Shown here piece after piece: positions 55,115 to 62,408 of a stretch of DNA of 64,000 nt. This DNA is from a virus. The position numbers were made by a program, and so were the translations under genes. The notes under the pieces were generated by a model that had not been told where the DNA came from, did no database searches, and worked only from the letters and a program-made list of their open reading frames with translations. How positions within the stretch are numbered: position 1 is the stretch's first letter; each line of letters starts with the position of its first letter. Location: IMG/VR virus record IMGVR_UViG_3300046559_000436, positions 1-64,000 of that record; one strand, 5' to 3'.

Positions 55115-55417
55115 ATGACCGACGTTACCAACGCCTACGGGCATAGGATCGGATCGCGCGGCATCACCACCCGCTCCTCTCTGCTGGATGCACTTCGGGG
55201 TCTGCTCAACCTGTACCCGGCCCACAACCTCCAGGTCAAGAACGTCACGGACATCGTCGGATGTTCTCCGGCGGTCTTCTGGACCTACTTCGCCCACCTG
55301 GATGACGCGTACCGGGCCCTGGCCGACACCGTCGGGGACGGGGATGCCCAGACGCTCTGGGCGCGACAGGTCAAGCACATCGTCAAGGTGCTGGACGAGG
55401 TCGCCGAAACCAGCTGA
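55115..55417 (+). CDS. truncated TetR-family regulator (DNA-binding domain, little ligand-binding domain)
   Basis: RGITTRSSLLDA..LL...LQVKNVTDIVGCSPAVFWTYF; only 100 aa. Confidence 0.7.
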   Translation: MTDVTNAYGHRIGSRGITTRSSLLDALRGLLNLYPAHNLQVKNVTDIVGCSPAVFWTYFAHLDDAYRALADTVGDGDAQTLWARQVKHIVKVLDEVAETS

Positions 55418-55478
55418 CGCAAGTCAACGGGGCCGACCCAATGGGTCGGCCCCACCACTGTATCCGAAAGGGAGAAAC

Positions 55479-57656
55479 ATGACCGCCACCTTCCTCGGAC
55501 GGACCCGAGTCGGAAGCACGTTCCTGCCCGAGCTGCCGCCGGACTGGCCGGTAGCGTTCGACTATGAGACCGCTGGGCTGTACCCGGACGGAGACTCCGG
55601 TACCAAGACTCAGCCCGCATCCCCGGAGGGCAGGGCGTCGGCCCTGGCCATCGCGTGGTTCGACCCCGAGACCGGCGAGCTGGTCTCACACGCCTTCCCG
55701 TTCGACCAGGGCAAGATTGCCGGGAAGCCGGGTAGGGCGATCCGGGACCCCGAGACCGGTCGACAGAGCTTCTCTCCGATCCAGGCCACCCTGGACTTCG
55801 ACAACCCCAACCTGGAACCGCAGTGGTACGTTGAGCTGATGGCCTGGCTCAGCCGTCGACGGTATCTGGTGGCCCACAACGCCAAGTTCGACATGGCGGT
55901 CGCTCGGATCGGTCTGCGTGCGGACGCAGGGGGGTTCGGCGGAGAGGAGGGCCTCGGCGGGACCGAGCTGGATCAGGAAGGGACCTACATCTATGACACG
56001 ATGCTGTCCCAGATGCTGTTGGCCCCTCTGGACATGCCGTCGCTGAAGCCTACGGCCAAGAAGCTGTGGGGTGACGACGAGACCGAGGAGCTGGAAGCCC
56101 TCAAGAAGGGGCTGAAGGCCAACGGCGTGGGGCTCGGTAAGCGATACGACCTGGTGGACTGGCCGATCCTGGCCAAGTACGCGGCCAAGGACGCCGAACT
56201 TACCATTCGCTTGCACCAGGTTCAGATGAACGCGGTCGACGACGAGATTGCGCCCCCGCTGTACGAGAGCCTGCTCGAAGACGACCTGCAGACCATGCGG
56301 GTACTGTACCGGATGGAGAAGCGCGGGCTGCCCTTCCTGAAGGAAGACGGTTTGGAGGTTGCCGAGGAGCTGCGTAAGCACGCCAAGATGGTGGCCAGCA
56401 CGATGCCATTCGATCCCAGCAAGCTCGCTCAGGCCATCCGGTTCTTCTACGGGTGGAAGTGCAGCAACTCCGAAATCAGGTCCCAGAAGTTCCTGACCGG
56501 GGACGAGCGGGACTGGTCGAAATTCCTGTGCGACAAGAGTTGCGAGGAGTGCCAGGGGAAGAACGGGCTCGGACTGGAGCCGACCAGCCGGACCGAGAAG
56601 CGCGGCGACCCCCAGCTCAATCAGGCCGAGATCGACAAGCTGGCCAAGCAGGGTCAGCCCTGGATCAAGGAGTTCCAAGAGTACGTCAGCTGCATGTCGG
56701 CCATCGCCAAATGGTACGACGGCTGGTCCCTTCGAGTGGGCAAAGACGGTCGTCTTCGGCCGGTTTTCAAGCAAGGCAAGCAGGAGACCGACAAGTCGGG
56801 CGGAGCCAAGAGCAAGGAGGGCGGCACCAAGACGGGTCGGCTGGCGGTGGAGCGGGTGCAGATCCAGGCGGTTCCCCGTAAGACGCACCTGCCCATCCCG
56901 GCCCCCCACCCCAAGAAGCTGATCCGGCCGACCAGCGGCAAGGTCGTGTGGGAATCGGACCTGCCCAACGGTGAGATGAGAATCGTCACTGTGATGTCCA
57001 ACTGCAACGCGATGTGGGACATCATCGACAAGCTGGACCGAGAAAAGGACGCCAGCGGCATTCACGGTCTGGTGTGCACCCAGATGTTCGGGTTGACACC
57101 TGAGGACGAGGATTTCCCCACCTTCAAGCAGGTGTCGAAGTGCATCGGTTTCGGGACGGTGTTCCAGTCCGGACCGCAGACCCTGGCTGACCAGGTCTAC
57201 CAGCAGTGCGGCGTGAAGTTCAAGGTTCAGGAGATGAAGGACTTCATCGCGGACTTCCGGGGTAAGTTCCCGGAGATCCAGCAACTGTCCGACCTGGCGG
57301 TGAAGAAGGCCGATCAGTGGCGCGGGCTGGGTTACGTCACACTGATCAACGGTCGCAACCGTTGGTTCGAGCCACACGAGCGGGTGGCCACCTGCGCGAT
57401 GTCGTCGGTTATTCAGGGTTCGCTCGCTGAGACCATGAAGACGTCCATGCGACAGGTGGAGGCTACTTACCCGGGCATCCTGATCAACCAGGTACACGAC
57501 TCGGTATGGGTGGAGGTGGACGACAGCCCGGAAGGCGAGGCGCTGGCTTGGGACGTGGCGCGGATGGTTCAGAACACCTTCGAGGAGACGTTCGACGTAC
57601 GCGAGCGACCCCGGATGAAGTTCCCGGTGACTCCGGAACGGCTTGACCTGAAGTGA
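55479..57656 (+). CDS. family A DNA polymerase with 3'-5' exonuclease
   Basis: ExoI FDYET, ExoII HNAKFD, ExoIII YAAKD; TGRL, motif A SDLPNGEMR, motif B K.IGFG, motif C QVHDS. Confidence 0.92.
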   Translation: MTATFLGRTRVGSTFLPELPPDWPVAFDYETAGLYPDGDSGTKTQPASPEGRASALAIAWFDPETGELVSHAFPFDQGKIAGKPGRAIRDPETGRQSFSPIQATLDFDNPNLEPQWYVELMAWLSRRRYLVAHNAKFDMAVARIGLRADAGGFGGEEGLGGTELDQEGTYIYDTMLSQMLLAPLDMPSLKPTAKKLWGDDETEELEALKKGLKANGVGLGKRYDLVDWPILAKYAAKDAELTIRLHQVQMNAVDDEIAPPLYESLLEDDLQTMRVLYRMEKRGLPFLKEDGLEVAEELRKHAKMVASTMPFDPSKLAQAIRFFYGWKCSNSEIRSQKFLTGDERDWSKFLCDKSCEECQGKNGLGLEPTSRTEKRGDPQLNQAEIDKLAKQGQPWIKEFQEYVSCMSAIAKWYDGWSLRVGKDGRLRPVFKQGKQETDKSGGAKSKEGGTKTGRLAVERVQIQAVPRKTHLPIPAPHPKKLIRPTSGKVVWESDLPNGEMRIVTVMSNCNAMWDIIDKLDREKDASGIHGLVCTQMFGLTPEDEDFPTFKQVSKCIGFGTVFQSGPQTLADQVYQQCGVKFKVQEMKDFIADFRGKFPEIQQLSDLAVKKADQWRGLGYVTLINGRNRWFEPHERVATCAMSSVIQGSLAETMKTSMRQVEATYPGILINQVHDSVWVEVDDSPEGEALAWDVARMVQNTFEETFDVRERPRMKFPVTPERLDLK

Positions 57657-57797
57657 CCAGCCCCTAGCGGGCCAGATCACCCCGCTGACCCCCGGAGGGC
57701 CTACAGTATGGGCATTGCTCCGGGGGAAAGCATGGTAGTACAATGGTGGTACACGGTGGGGCACGCGGCCCCACCCCGAACCCGAGAGGGAGTGATT

Positions 57798-57974
57798 ATG
57801 GACAGCAGATGGACCACGAAGGATGACCTGGACGCGGCTTTCTACGGGATCGTGGGGCCGCAGGTCAACCGCATCGTTAGCATCAAGATCAGCGGTCTCA
57901 TGAAGATCAGCGCGGCGGGCGGCCCCAGGCCGGACACCCGAGTGCCGGTGATGGTGGGTCAGCTGTGGAGATGA
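57798..57974 (+). CDS. hypothetical protein
   Basis: GGGAG SD after promoter TTGCTC-18-TACAAT (57715-44). Confidence 0.55.
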   Translation: MDSRWTTKDDLDAAFYGIVGPQVNRIVSIKISGLMKISAAGGPRPDTRVPVMVGQLWR

Positions 57975-58465
57975 CCAGCAAGGACGTCAAGGGAAAGACC
58001 ACGGGCGTGCAGACCGAAGTGACCCTTCCGGTCAATCTGACCTTCAGCTATGATCCTGAGGACCCCTTCGCGTTCTACATGAAGTTCAACCCCAGCCGTT
58101 TCAATGAAGAGGTCCAGTGGGTGGGTTCCCTGGACCTCCTGCGCCAGGGTGTTCACGCTCCGGCCGGTCTTGCCGACATCCAGGTCTACCCAATCGACAA
58201 GGGTCAGATCGCGATTCGGCTCGAAGCCGAGGTAGGCCATTCGACCACCCGAGTGGCGGCCAAGGACATCAAGGCGTTCATCAGCGCCATCGACGAGGAG
58301 GAATCAGTGTCCAGTGTGACGATCGGTGAGGCGGTCGAGATTACTCTGGAGCAGTTTCTGGAGGATCTCGGCCTCTACCCCTATGACAACGGCCCGTCTC
58401 TCCCGCCGGGGTGGTGCCCGAACTGTATGCGAGTCCACTCCGGCAACGGATGCGGTGACGCCTGA
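57971..58465 (+). CDS. SsgA-like (SALP) sporulation/cell-division protein
   Basis: FSYDPEDPFAFYMKF..VQWVGSLDLLRQG..PAGLADIQVYP..IRLE....G..AFI matches the SsgA/SsgB pattern. Confidence 0.8.
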   Translation: MTSKDVKGKTTGVQTEVTLPVNLTFSYDPEDPFAFYMKFNPSRFNEEVQWVGSLDLLRQGVHAPAGLADIQVYPIDKGQIAIRLEAEVGHSTTRVAAKDIKAFISAIDEEESVSSVTIGEAVEITLEQFLEDLGLYPYDNGPSLPPGWCPNCMRVHSGNGCGDA

Positions 58466-58692
58466 TGGGCTGGGGCAGCGCGGGGGCGACGATCTTCGAC
58501 CCTACGATCGAGGCTCTGGTCAAATCCGGGACCACTGACGAGGTGCTGTTCGACACGGCGGTGAACCTCATCAACAACCTCCAGAGCGAGGACTGGGACA
58601 CCGAGGGAGAGTCCCTGGATCACTTCAAGGACAATCCGGTGATCGTCCGGGCGTTCGCCAGCCTCGGAATCCGGTTGCACCACAGCACCTAG
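58465..58692 (+). CDS. hypothetical protein
   Basis: MGWGSAG..DWDT motif; TGATG coupling. Confidence 0.65.
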   Translation: MGWGSAGATIFDPTIEALVKSGTTDEVLFDTAVNLINNLQSEDWDTEGESLDHFKDNPVIVRAFASLGIRLHHST

Positions 58693-58694
58693 TA

Positions 58695-58724
58695 TTGATC
58701 CGCAGCAAAACGCTGTGATACAAT
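58695..58724 (+). promoter_or_regulatory. promoter (leaderless) with the AAAACGCTGTGA motif
   Basis: TTGATC-18-TACAAT; ATG at 58731. Confidence 0.7.
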
Positions 58725-60054: not shown

Positions 60055-60178
60055 GGAGCTGGTCGTGACGGTGTGCGACGCGTTCGGGATCACTCGGGAC
60101 GAGTTTCTGAAAATCGTCAAAGAAGAGGCCGAAGATATGGGCCTCACGATTCTGGAAGAGGTGCTGGCGCAATGTTGA
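60032..60178 (+). CDS. hypothetical protein (48 aa)
   Basis: GGAGG SD; MADLAGIKELVVTVCDAFGITRDEFLKIVKEE... Confidence 0.55.
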   Translation: MADLAGIKELVVTVCDAFGITRDEFLKIVKEEAEDMGLTILEEVLAQC

Positions 60179-60744
60179 ACTCTGATGTGATGGCGTGGGG
60201 GTCCCTGGTCACCTGCGTCACAACGTACGTCGGGTACCAGGCAGGGTCGTTGAAGGCCCGGGTCGTGGCGGACCGGGAGTACCGGGACCCCGAGACCGGG
60301 ATGCTGACTCGGAAGGGCTTCGAACATCGCGCCCTGAAGATGCTGGCCAAGAGCTGCAACTACATCGTGGTGATGGTCGACCTCAACGACCTGAAAAAGG
60401 TCAACGACGAGTTCGGCCACGCGGCGGGCGACATGTTCATCCGCGAGCAGGCTGGTCGAATCAGTGACTGGGCCCGTAGGAAGAACGGGGTGGCGGCCAG
60501 GCTCGGCGGGGACGAGTTCGTGGTGATCGTCACCGGCTCTGCCGACACCACGGCGCTCAAGGAAGATCTGAACCGACCGATCTGCTGGGAGGGCGAGACC
60601 AGGTACTGGACCGCCAGCGTCGGATTCTCCTGGATCTCGATCGGGGTGCTCAAGAGCGACCGGAAGAACTGCCTGTCCAAGGCTCTCGGCAAGGCTGACC
60701 AGGACATGTACAAGAACAAGGGCGAGGGGCGCAGCCGCCGCTAG
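60172..60744 (+). CDS. GGDEF diguanylate cyclase
   Basis: DPETGMLTR, VDLNDLKKVNDEFGHAAGD, ARLGGDEF, ASVG, ADQDMY..K. Confidence 0.9.
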   Translation: MLNSDVMAWGSLVTCVTTYVGYQAGSLKARVVADREYRDPETGMLTRKGFEHRALKMLAKSCNYIVVMVDLNDLKKVNDEFGHAAGDMFIREQAGRISDWARRKNGVAARLGGDEFVVIVTGSADTTALKEDLNRPICWEGETRYWTASVGFSWISIGVLKSDRKNCLSKALGKADQDMYKNKGEGRSRR

Positions 60745-61120: not shown

Positions 61121-61211
61121 CGAAAGCCGGATGCGGGGGGTCGATCTCTCAAATGTGAGGGGTCGACCCCCTGGGTCTTACTTTCCGAACAGACCTAAGA
61201 GGAGACAGAAG

Positions 61212-62408
61212 ATGACCGGGAAGTTGATCGTCGTAGCGGACGGGTTCTACGGAAGCTGCGGCAAGGGCCACGTCACCGAGATGCTGTTGAACTCGGACGA
61301 CAGCCTGGTTCAGGCGAACGTTCGAGTGGGCGGCCCGAACGCAGGGCACATCGTGTACGGGCCGCAGTGCCCGAGCTGGTGCGGGATCGGCGACGAGGGC
61401 CCGAGCGATGTCCCGTGGGGGGCGGAGCCCGAGGAGGACCACCTCGTGGTGGGCGGAATCCGTCTGCACCCCTGGAAGCTGCGTCAGGTGCCGGTCGGGG
61501 CGGTAGTGAACCACTACTGCAAGTTGGTGATCGCGGCCGGGTCGGAGATCCACCTGCCGACGCTGCACGAGGAGATCAAGGCGCTGGAGGACGCTGGCCA
61601 CCGCGTCATCAACCGGCTCTACATCGACTCGGCGGCTACGGTTCTGACTGAGCGTCACAAGGAGCAGGAGAAGCACCGCGACCTGACCGGCAAGCTCGGT
61701 TCGACGGCCAAGGGGATCGGCGCCGCTCGGGCGGACCGGATCTGGCGGACGGCGGAGACCTGGGGCGAGCACGTCAAGGACCACAACGATTCCCAGTGGA
61801 CGACGGACAACACGGCGGACTACCTGTACCAGCTGATGAGCCGGGCCGGTGGCACGGTGATCATCGAGGGCACCCAGGGGTTCGGGCTGGGTCTGCACAC
61901 CGAGAACTACCCGCAGGTGACCAGCACGGATTGCCGGGCGGTGGACTTCCTGGCACAGGCCGGACTGTCGCCCTGGCACAAGGCGGTCGAGAAGTTCGAA
62001 CCGTGGGTGGTGCTGCGGACCAGGCCGATCCGGGTGGCCGGGAACAGCGGCCCGATGAAGGGTGAGACCACCTGGGAGGAGATCGGGCTTCGGCCCGAGA
62101 AGACCACGGTCACGCGGAAGGTGCGCAGGGTCGGCGAGTTCGACGCCGGGCTGGCGAACCGGGCGATCGACGCCAACGGCGGTCACAACGTGGCCAGGGT
62201 GGCGCTCACGATGGTGGATCACGTGATCCCGGAGCTGGCGGGGGCGGACTTCATCGAGGACCTGACGCCCGAGGTGGTGACGAGGCTGAAGGGGTTCATC
62301 GAGGACATCGAGATCAAGCTCAGCGGCCAGGTGATCAGCTGGGTGGGGACGGGGCCGGACACCGGACTGTGGCTGGTGGACGAAAAGGGCGACCGACTGC
62401 CCTGGTGA
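61212..62408 (+). CDS. purZ: PurZ/PurZ0-like N6-succino-2-amino-dAMP synthetase (adenylosuccinate synthetase family)
   Basis: DGFYGSCGKG (Ser in place of the PurA Asp), GGPNAGH, GSTAKGIG, EGTQG, YPQVTS, RTRPIRVAGNSGP, TTVTRKVRRVGEFD, LTMVD, GTGP. Confidence 0.8.
   Translation: MTGKLIVVADGFYGSCGKGHVTEMLLNSDDSLVQANVRVGGPNAGHIVYGPQCPSWCGIGDEGPSDVPWGAEPEEDHLVVGGIRLHPWKLRQVPVGAVVNHYCKLVIAAGSEIHLPTLHEEIKALEDAGHRVINRLYIDSAATVLTERHKEQEKHRDLTGKLGSTAKGIGAARADRIWRTAETWGEHVKDHNDSQWTTDNTADYLYQLMSRAGGTVIIEGTQGFGLGLHTENYPQVTSTDCRAVDFLAQAGLSPWHKAVEKFEPWVVLRTRPIRVAGNSGPMKGETTWEEIGLRPEKTTVTRKVRRVGEFDAGLANRAIDANGGHNVARVALTMVDHVIPELAGADFIEDLTPEVVTRLKGFIEDIEIKLSGQVISWVGTGPDTGLWLVDEKGDRLPW

Follow-up and report, generated by a model that had tools for sequence, protein, structure and literature searches.

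In sporulating actinomycetes, the positive recruiter of FtsZ is SsgB, which in this role is the archetype of the SsgA-like proteins (SALPs). Within the same family, SsgC of Streptomyces coelicolor has reportedly been proposed as a natural antagonist of SsgA. SALPs have been known solely from sporulating or morphologically complex actinomycetes (PMC3814722). In S. coelicolor SsgB, Arg55 forms salt bridges to E120 and V115 in the alpha2-alpha3 loop, and these contacts set the angle of helix alpha3; substitutions at any of E120, V115 and G118 cause the division plane to tilt or rotate, and an SsgB that comprises only residues 1-114 co-pellets with FtsZ all the same, while bundling it less (PMC8061694). 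The family has also been noted in viruses: an ssgA gene was reported in Streptomyces phage Dagobah (Hardy et al. 2020, PMC7650747), and phage ssgA has been listed among candidate manipulators of host development (Luthe et al. 2023, PMC10117723). In the literature we found no experiment on any phage SALP.

Here we describe a phage SALP with a C-terminal Cys2-His-Cys tail and a rebuilt alpha3 region; phage SALPs as such are already known, and these two features are what is new. The window, a stretch of 64 kb, is the first part of a 97,260-bp IMG/VR virus record from a rhizosphere metagenome, estimated to be 96% complete, with all genes on the + strand and a GC content of ~60%. The record encodes a large terminase, a portal, a tape measure, and minor tail and tail-fibre proteins, which identifies it as a tailed phage. 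A variant ~98-99% identical to this phage also occurs, at low depth, in a second rhizosphere study. Within the SALP gene this variant carries 3 SNPs, all synonymous third-position changes; seen at low depth and on single contigs, they lend weak support to selection on the gene. Among the public sequencing runs that match the phage record, none is an RNA run.

The SALP gene lies at 57965..58465 (+ strand) in a tight string of genes. The preliminary description had placed it at 57971-58465, and the ORF list indeed contains an open reading frame there, with an ATG start and 164 aa, identical to the database gene call P0001. A GTG at 57965 would instead give 166 aa. The GTG is preceded at 6 nt by a GGTGGG box, whereas the ATG has a GGAG immediately adjacent to it, and the N-terminus read from the GTG (MEM-T) resembles that of the closest homolog, P0002 (MEL-T). 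We therefore favour the GTG, for its better Shine-Dalgarno spacing and its P0002-like N-terminus. The string begins with a family-A DNA polymerase (55482..57656, +; Pfam DNA_pol_A) and continues with an ORF of 88 aa (57708..57974, +), the SALP gene and an ORF of 75 aa (58465..58692, +). The SALP gene overlaps both small ORFs through its start and stop codons: the stop of the upstream ORF overlaps the SALP start, and the ATG of the downstream ORF overlaps the SALP stop (TGATG). For the 88-aa ORF, Pfam gave only a sub-threshold match to DUF6409 and PHROG gave none; the 75-aa ORF matched neither Pfam nor PHROG. The nearest promoter-like site (58695-58724), the sole one nearby, lies past this gene string and ahead of a RuvC-like gene.

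Farther along, 1.6 kb downstream of the SALP gene, lies a GGDEF diguanylate cyclase (60073-60744, +; 87 bits) in which the RLGGDEF motif is present and RKNG replaces the RxxD I-site. A PurA-like synthetase is also encoded further downstream. We looked for other developmental mimics as well, and the 97-kb record encodes neither WhiB (PF02467) nor Lsr2 (PF11774).

By both HMM and fold, the phage protein is a genuine SsgA-like protein. The preliminary description had recognized a SALP signature by eye and had staked the assignment on an SsgA HMM hit or a fold match; both were found. Pfam SsgA (PF04686) matches residues 21-107 at 63 bits (E 2.6e-17) against a gathering cut-off of 25, covering profile positions 1-89 of 98, and the same HMM run on the whole 97-kb record finds one copy (58031-58291, 63.9 bits) and no second. 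The best PDB sequence match is S. coelicolor SsgB (6slc, E 1.4e-11). An AlphaFold2 model built on 40 sequences reached a mean pLDDT of 89.5, and in a Foldseek search of the PDB the best eight matches were all SsgB chains (6slc, 6suj and 3cm1; E 1e-9 to 2e-5), with target-normalised TM scores of 0.62-0.78 over the eight and 0.76-0.78 for the top matches. The SsgB fold is a beta sheet around which three helices wrap. In the 40-sequence SALP alignment, which includes the query, W50, G60, G66 and F103 are invariant, and Y27, D31, P32, A34, L56, D69, P74 and G89 are at least 90% conserved.

Set beside SsgB of S. coelicolor (6SLC/6SUJ) and Thermobifida fusca (3CM1), with which it has its Pfam family and fold in common, the phage protein keeps the YDP-x-DP-[FY]-A motif, W51, the DLL-x-x-G helix, the AG-x-x-D-[IV]-x-V-x-P strand and the FL helix, and it is acidic, as are other SALPs. 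It differs in being phage-encoded, in its low identity (~28-34%) and in being ~30 residues longer, the added length ending in the Cys2-His-Cys tail; it also has Leu for Arg55 and no VPxGxE loop. The most similar cellular SALPs are 28-40% identical over ~90 residues. Among the NCBIfam SALP models the sole match was SsgD, which scored 53 bits where the cut-off is 185, and this places the similarity below equivalog level. By these sequence comparisons, no named Streptomyces SALP is orthologous to the phage protein. We considered that the gene might have been captured recently from a host and rejected this, as identity to every cellular SALP is at most 40% and the GC content of the gene matches that of the phage.

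The tail is found in just three further proteins among ~15 billion: P0002 (73-76% identical to the query), P0003 (51-54%) and P0004 (46-47%). All three are singletons encoded on metagenome contigs of Logan or ENA. When 1.84 billion representatives were searched exhaustively with phmmer, all matches but two covered only residues ~13-130 of the query. Profile scans of viral, metagenome and genome contig collections with the alignment of this clade returned no additional member. In a tree of 150 SALPs the four tailed proteins form a supported clade (SH-aLRT 95); its placement beside Ibantik or any cellular subfamily lacks support, so that no donor can be named.

We compared the tailed proteins with cellular SALPs at the positions that govern alpha3 in SsgB. 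Downstream of the SsgA core (residues 21-107, 58031..58291, +), which comprises the beta strands and helices alpha1 and alpha2, lies an acidic region that spans the end of alpha2 and alpha3 (residues 108-135, 58292..58375, +). It contains a modelled helix (118-132), ends in LEDLGL, carries a net charge of -9 and replaces the VPxGxE loop of cellular SALPs. Arg55, present in 137 of the 150 aligned SALPs, is Leu in the four tailed proteins (Ser-Leu-Asp in place of Ala-Arg-Asp), and V115, P116, G118 and E120, each present in 109-124 of the 150, are lost along with the whole VPxGxE motif. The hydrophobic-patch positions (Y35, V37 and L57 of SsgB) are still hydrophobic. Arg55 and VPxGxE are not a formal criterion of the family, and thus their loss leaves SALP membership standing and weakens equivalence to SsgB. 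With the patch kept and the Arg55-VPxGxE pair gone, the part of SsgB sufficient for FtsZ association is conserved, and the part concerned with geometry and bundling is rebuilt and extended. A complex prediction that combined the clade alignment with S. coelicolor FtsZ, run without controls, gave a score of 0.00 and no verdict, which counts neither for nor against binding.

The tail itself comprises 29 residues (136-164, 58376..58462, +), with YPYD, GPS-x-P and the ligand series C149-x2-C152-x3-H156-x4-C161. The series falls within CPNCMRVHSGNGC at 58415-58453, which is the sole C-x2-C-x3/4-H-x4-C in the six frames of the 97-kb genome and holds all 3 cysteines of the protein. That the protein carries an extra Cys/His tail had been proposed from its letters, and the homologs bear this out: C149, C152, H156 and C161 are invariant across all three, despite identity down to 46%, a degree of conservation that, judged from the alignment, is above chance expectation. 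Across the four tailed members, invariant positions make up 13 of the 29 residues of the tail, 33 of the 107 core residues and 7 of the 28 alpha3-region residues, and by this count the tail is the best-conserved portion of the protein.

Given the four invariant ligands, we infer that the tail binds zinc and is probably a small zinc knuckle. In the model, which for the tail rests on four sequences, it forms a short beta hairpin that leads into a helical turn (pLDDT 66-82), a shape that would suit such a knuckle. Like the zf-CCHC knuckle (C-x2-C-x4-H-x4-C), the tail has its ligands in the order Cys, Cys, His, Cys within 13 residues, with an aromatic residue preceding them and a hairpin and turn in the model. 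It differs in having three rather than four residues between the second Cys and the His, where zf-CCHC and retroviral knuckles have x4, and in an acidic rather than basic context; it shows neither the zf-CCHC spacing nor a match to the zf-CCHC HMM. Searched alone, the tail matched no Pfam family even at E 10 and had no homolog of similar length beyond the four-member clade. In the ESM Atlas it gave no usable feature match, and all structure matches were below TM 0.5.

The known SALPs of cultured phages lack this tail. Dagobah gp31, TunaTartare gp213 and Ibantik gp20 match the SsgA HMM at 75, 58 and 28.5 bits, respectively, and a further SALP, in BillNye, was found through BFVD; all four are fold matches. 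Dagobah gp31 is annotated as an SsgA family regulator and the BillNye protein is also annotated, and TunaTartare gp213 and Ibantik gp20 are recorded as 'hypothetical protein'. A tblastn search of cultured phages returned nothing at E 1e-5 and, at E 10, Ibantik, Dagobah, TunaTartare and Sham. All four SALPs are less than 30% identical to the query. Those of Dagobah and TunaTartare retain Arg55 and VPxGxE, unlike the tailed clade. The nearest by sequence is Ibantik gp20, which has Ser-Leu-Asp and a loop-less alpha3 in common with the tailed clade and whose C-terminus falls exactly where the tail of the query begins; its grouping with that clade is without statistical support in the tree.

These genes also lie among early or replication genes, beside a primase/polymerase in Dagobah and beside Pol I and ThyX in Ibantik, and this bears on a possible function in replication or recombination, in which a 'whirly'-like SsgB fold and a zinc knuckle would together bind single-stranded nucleic acid. 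The SsgB fold, as seen in the 3CM1 structure, reportedly resembles whirly single-stranded DNA-binding proteins and MRP guide-RNA-binding proteins. In the phage studied here the SALP gene sits between the polymerase and a RuvC-like resolvase, so that three unrelated phages (this one, Dagobah and Ibantik) carry a SALP within a module for replication or nucleotide metabolism. The sole PDB sequence match of the tail, moreover, is the zinc knuckle of a retroviral nucleocapsid/Gag protein (1cl4), at a non-significant E of 2.9. The charge of the protein speaks against such binding: with a pI of 4.5 and a net charge of -12 (-9 in the alpha3 region and -1 in the tail), there is no basic surface, and all phage SALPs checked have a pI of 4.0-4.6. 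A position among early and middle genes would also be expected of genes for host takeover. Chiefly because of the pI and net charge, we consider a nucleic-acid role very unlikely.

The polymerase at the head of the gene string links the tailed proteins to one another. Its three nearest homologs (83, 80 and 78% identity) are on contigs of 22863, 9949 and 10999 bp, and P0002, P0004 and P0003, respectively, are recorded on contigs of these same sizes. With three of three contigs equal in size, and with the link drawn from size rather than from DNA, it is very likely that each of the four known members has the tailed SALP linked to this polymerase; together they probably represent one small phage lineage. 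Among these members the SALP has diverged to 47-76% identity, compared with 78-83% for the polymerase, and yet has kept its tail, as would be expected where a gene product interacts with the host.

Such a pattern, with the tail most conserved and the core fast-diverging, is typical of host-interaction or arms-race genes and could also mean that the SALP fold is a mere scaffold, its function unrelated to division and the Cys/His tail its working part. The protein might then inhibit a host defence or sensor or act as its decoy, or it might pair with the two small ORFs that overlap its gene, neither of which has a known family; the tail might serve as a docking peptide or as a switch that senses redox state or metal. 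Against this, the residues invariant throughout the SALP family are retained, and the tail-less SALPs of several independent Streptomyces phage lineages point to the SALP core as the seat of function. We regard a scaffold role as unlikely.

The distribution of the family also bears on the host. Every cultured phage found to carry the SsgB fold infects Streptomyces. The closest cultured relatives of the polymerase are likewise from Streptomyces phages, of the genus Hiyaavirus, at 37% identity and with a similar gene order; one of these phages, Keanu, has no SALP. A filamentous actinomycete host, as had been suggested from the SALP gene at the outset, is very likely on four grounds combined: the restriction of SALPs among cells, the Streptomyces hosts of the cultured SALP phages, a polymerase akin to those of Hiyaavirus, and recovery from the rhizosphere. 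With a GC content of 60% and relatives as distant as these, the assignment stays above genus level. The accompanying statement that SALPs are restricted to morphologically complex actinomycetes holds for cells but not for their phages, since this tailed-phage record and the Streptomyces phages Dagobah, TunaTartare, Ibantik and BillNye all carry the SsgA family.

For the function of the tailed SALP we favour, with about an even chance of being right, a phage auxiliary gene whose product disrupts the FtsZ- and SsgB-dependent sporulation septation of the host. A protein of SsgB fold would be produced alongside the replication genes while the phage is infecting a filamentous, sporulating actinomycete, and its conserved core, including the patch equivalent to Y35, V37 and L57, would engage the cellular partners of SALPs, namely FtsZ and/or SsgA and SsgB. 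The remodelled alpha3 and the putative zinc-knuckle tail would then give a different output or bring in an additional partner, such that, with alpha3 altered and the tail putatively stabilised by metal, the positional output of SsgB would not be reproduced. Sporulation septation would be blocked or misplaced, and the infected hypha would remain a productive vegetative compartment instead of escaping by forming aerial hyphae and spores, which are phage-tolerant. The GGDEF cyclase encoded downstream may push the same way via c-di-GMP and BldD, as a cyclase that lacks the I-site is expected to keep the host in vegetative growth. For a SALP that counteracts a SALP, SsgC, a cellular paralogue that has the ordinary length and no Cys/His tail, would be the precedent, its reported role following the same logic.

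Disruption of septation would be in keeping with what is known of phage infection in Streptomyces, where development limits phage spread, with aerial growth and sporulation at the plaque rim containing the infection, and where developmental genes are repressed early after infection (PMC10117723). A more elaborate version, which we put forward as speculative and improbable, would make the tail a zinc-dependent adaptor that docks a further host or phage factor at nascent division sites or away from them, so that the protein retargets the FtsZ-recruiting machinery instead of simply competing with it. Together with the feedback-insensitive cyclase, such a protein would form a two-level module for developmental arrest, acting on transcription via c-di-GMP and BldD and on cell biology via the SALP.

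The preliminary description had proposed a dominant-negative form or a mimic of SsgA/SsgB; an agonist fits the sequence just as well as an antagonist. The phage protein might substitute for SsgA or SsgB, supplying an activity of this type free of host regulation and causing extra septa, fragmentation or local remodelling of peptidoglycan, whether to compartmentalise the infected hypha, to aid lysis or to disperse infected fragments. The full SALP core and fold are conserved, and if the GGDEF cyclase raises c-di-GMP, the host ssgA and ssgB genes would be repressed and a phage copy could bypass this repression. The repression argument draws on what is reportedly known of the BldD regulon and c-di-GMP. 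In liquid culture, the morphogene SsgA is known to influence fragmentation (cited in PMC11302927), and a prophage can promote the dispersal of Streptomyces clumps (PMC11302927). On the other side, the residues that in SsgB secure alpha3 geometry and the fidelity of the septum plane are missing, identity to SsgB is just ~28-34%, and the SsgD model scores far under its cut-off (53 against 185 bits). The promotion of septation also seems at odds with a cyclase expected to maintain vegetative growth. On balance we hold an agonist to be possible, and clearly less probable than the disruption of septation that we favour.

If the gene should be an inert host-like one, little would be lost, as the SALP family is known in phages already. 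Otherwise, the tailed SALP is a natural variant under phage selection, one that has kept the core, lost the Arg55-E120 lock and gained a predicted metal-binding tail, and is thus a ready probe of which SsgB surfaces matter for the reading of position and for the division plane. It would also give a first handle on what phage SALPs, noted since 2020, do. Furthermore, the presence of a SALP near a phage diguanylate cyclase adds to the view that actinophages counter the developmental 'escape' of Streptomyces.

SsgA-like proteins (SALPs) were also found in other phage records under uninformative annotations. Two Streptomyces phage products, each annotated as 'hypothetical protein', score above the cut-off of the Pfam SsgA model: Ibantik gp20 (L003, 3968-4330) at 28.5 bits and TunaTartare gp213 (L004, 2510-2881) at 58 bits. 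Both have the SsgB fold in BFVD, and the TunaTartare gene is also present in phage Sham. A further record from human faecal samples, MT838510.1 (L005/L007; 5175 bp, entered as 'Bacteriophage sp.'), contains the gene for a canonical SALP, which scores 94 bits and keeps Arg55 and a TPGTE loop. This contig is very GC-rich and unannotated, and no phage gene is visible in its 5175 bp. It is probably a piece of actinomycete chromosome deposited as phage.

The VPxGxE loop is absent from a small further group of SALPs of 135-137 aa (P0062, P0088 and P0125, matched in the phmmer search). The position of Arg55 is occupied by Leu in P0062 and P0125 and by His in P0088, and all three end at the C terminus in LD-x-x-I-E-E-[IV]-L. 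These proteins suggest that the loop-less type of SALP is broader than the tailed clade.

Directly upstream of the SALP gene in the window lies an ORF of 88 aa (57708-57974, + strand). In the variant from the second rhizosphere study, two of the three SNPs within this ORF change a residue (Met9 to Thr and Tyr to His), and all three SNPs within the SALP gene are silent. The true start of the ORF may be later than listed, or the constraint on it may be weaker.

The same strand carries a family-A polymerase (55482-57656), whose nearest cultured relatives are those of Streptomyces Hiyaavirus phages and of Gordonia phage Ghobes. An open frame rich in Ser, Thr, Arg and Pro extends 98 residues ahead of it (55188-55481). 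This extension is probably untranslated: the gene as called in the database has 725 aa, and alignments to homologs begin at about residue 8, counted from the 55482 start. A PurA-like adenylosuccinate synthetase (61131-62408, + strand) follows 3.5 kb downstream of the polymerase, the same gene order as in the Hiyaavirus phage Keanu. PurZ has reportedly been found in phages that include Hiyaa and Ghobes, and this would fit a 2-aminoadenine (Z-genome) reading.

Genes for WhiB and Lsr2 are absent from the whole phage record. The SALP gene is followed, 1.6 kb downstream, by a phage gene for a GGDEF diguanylate cyclase (60073-60744, + strand; Pfam 87 bits). Its RLGGDEF motif is intact, the position of the RxxD inhibitory site reads RKNG, and it has no sensor domain. 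Within this gene, contig depth rises from 27 to 63 at positions 60396-60581 in both rhizosphere runs, where many short contigs continue into dissimilar sequence; the rise reflects contigs of other organisms recruited by conserved GGDEF motifs and is not a feature of the phage. In Streptomyces, BldD and sigma-WhiG are under the control of c-di-GMP, and for this reason the predicted cyclase would offer the phage a second means of acting on the development of its host, beside the SALP.
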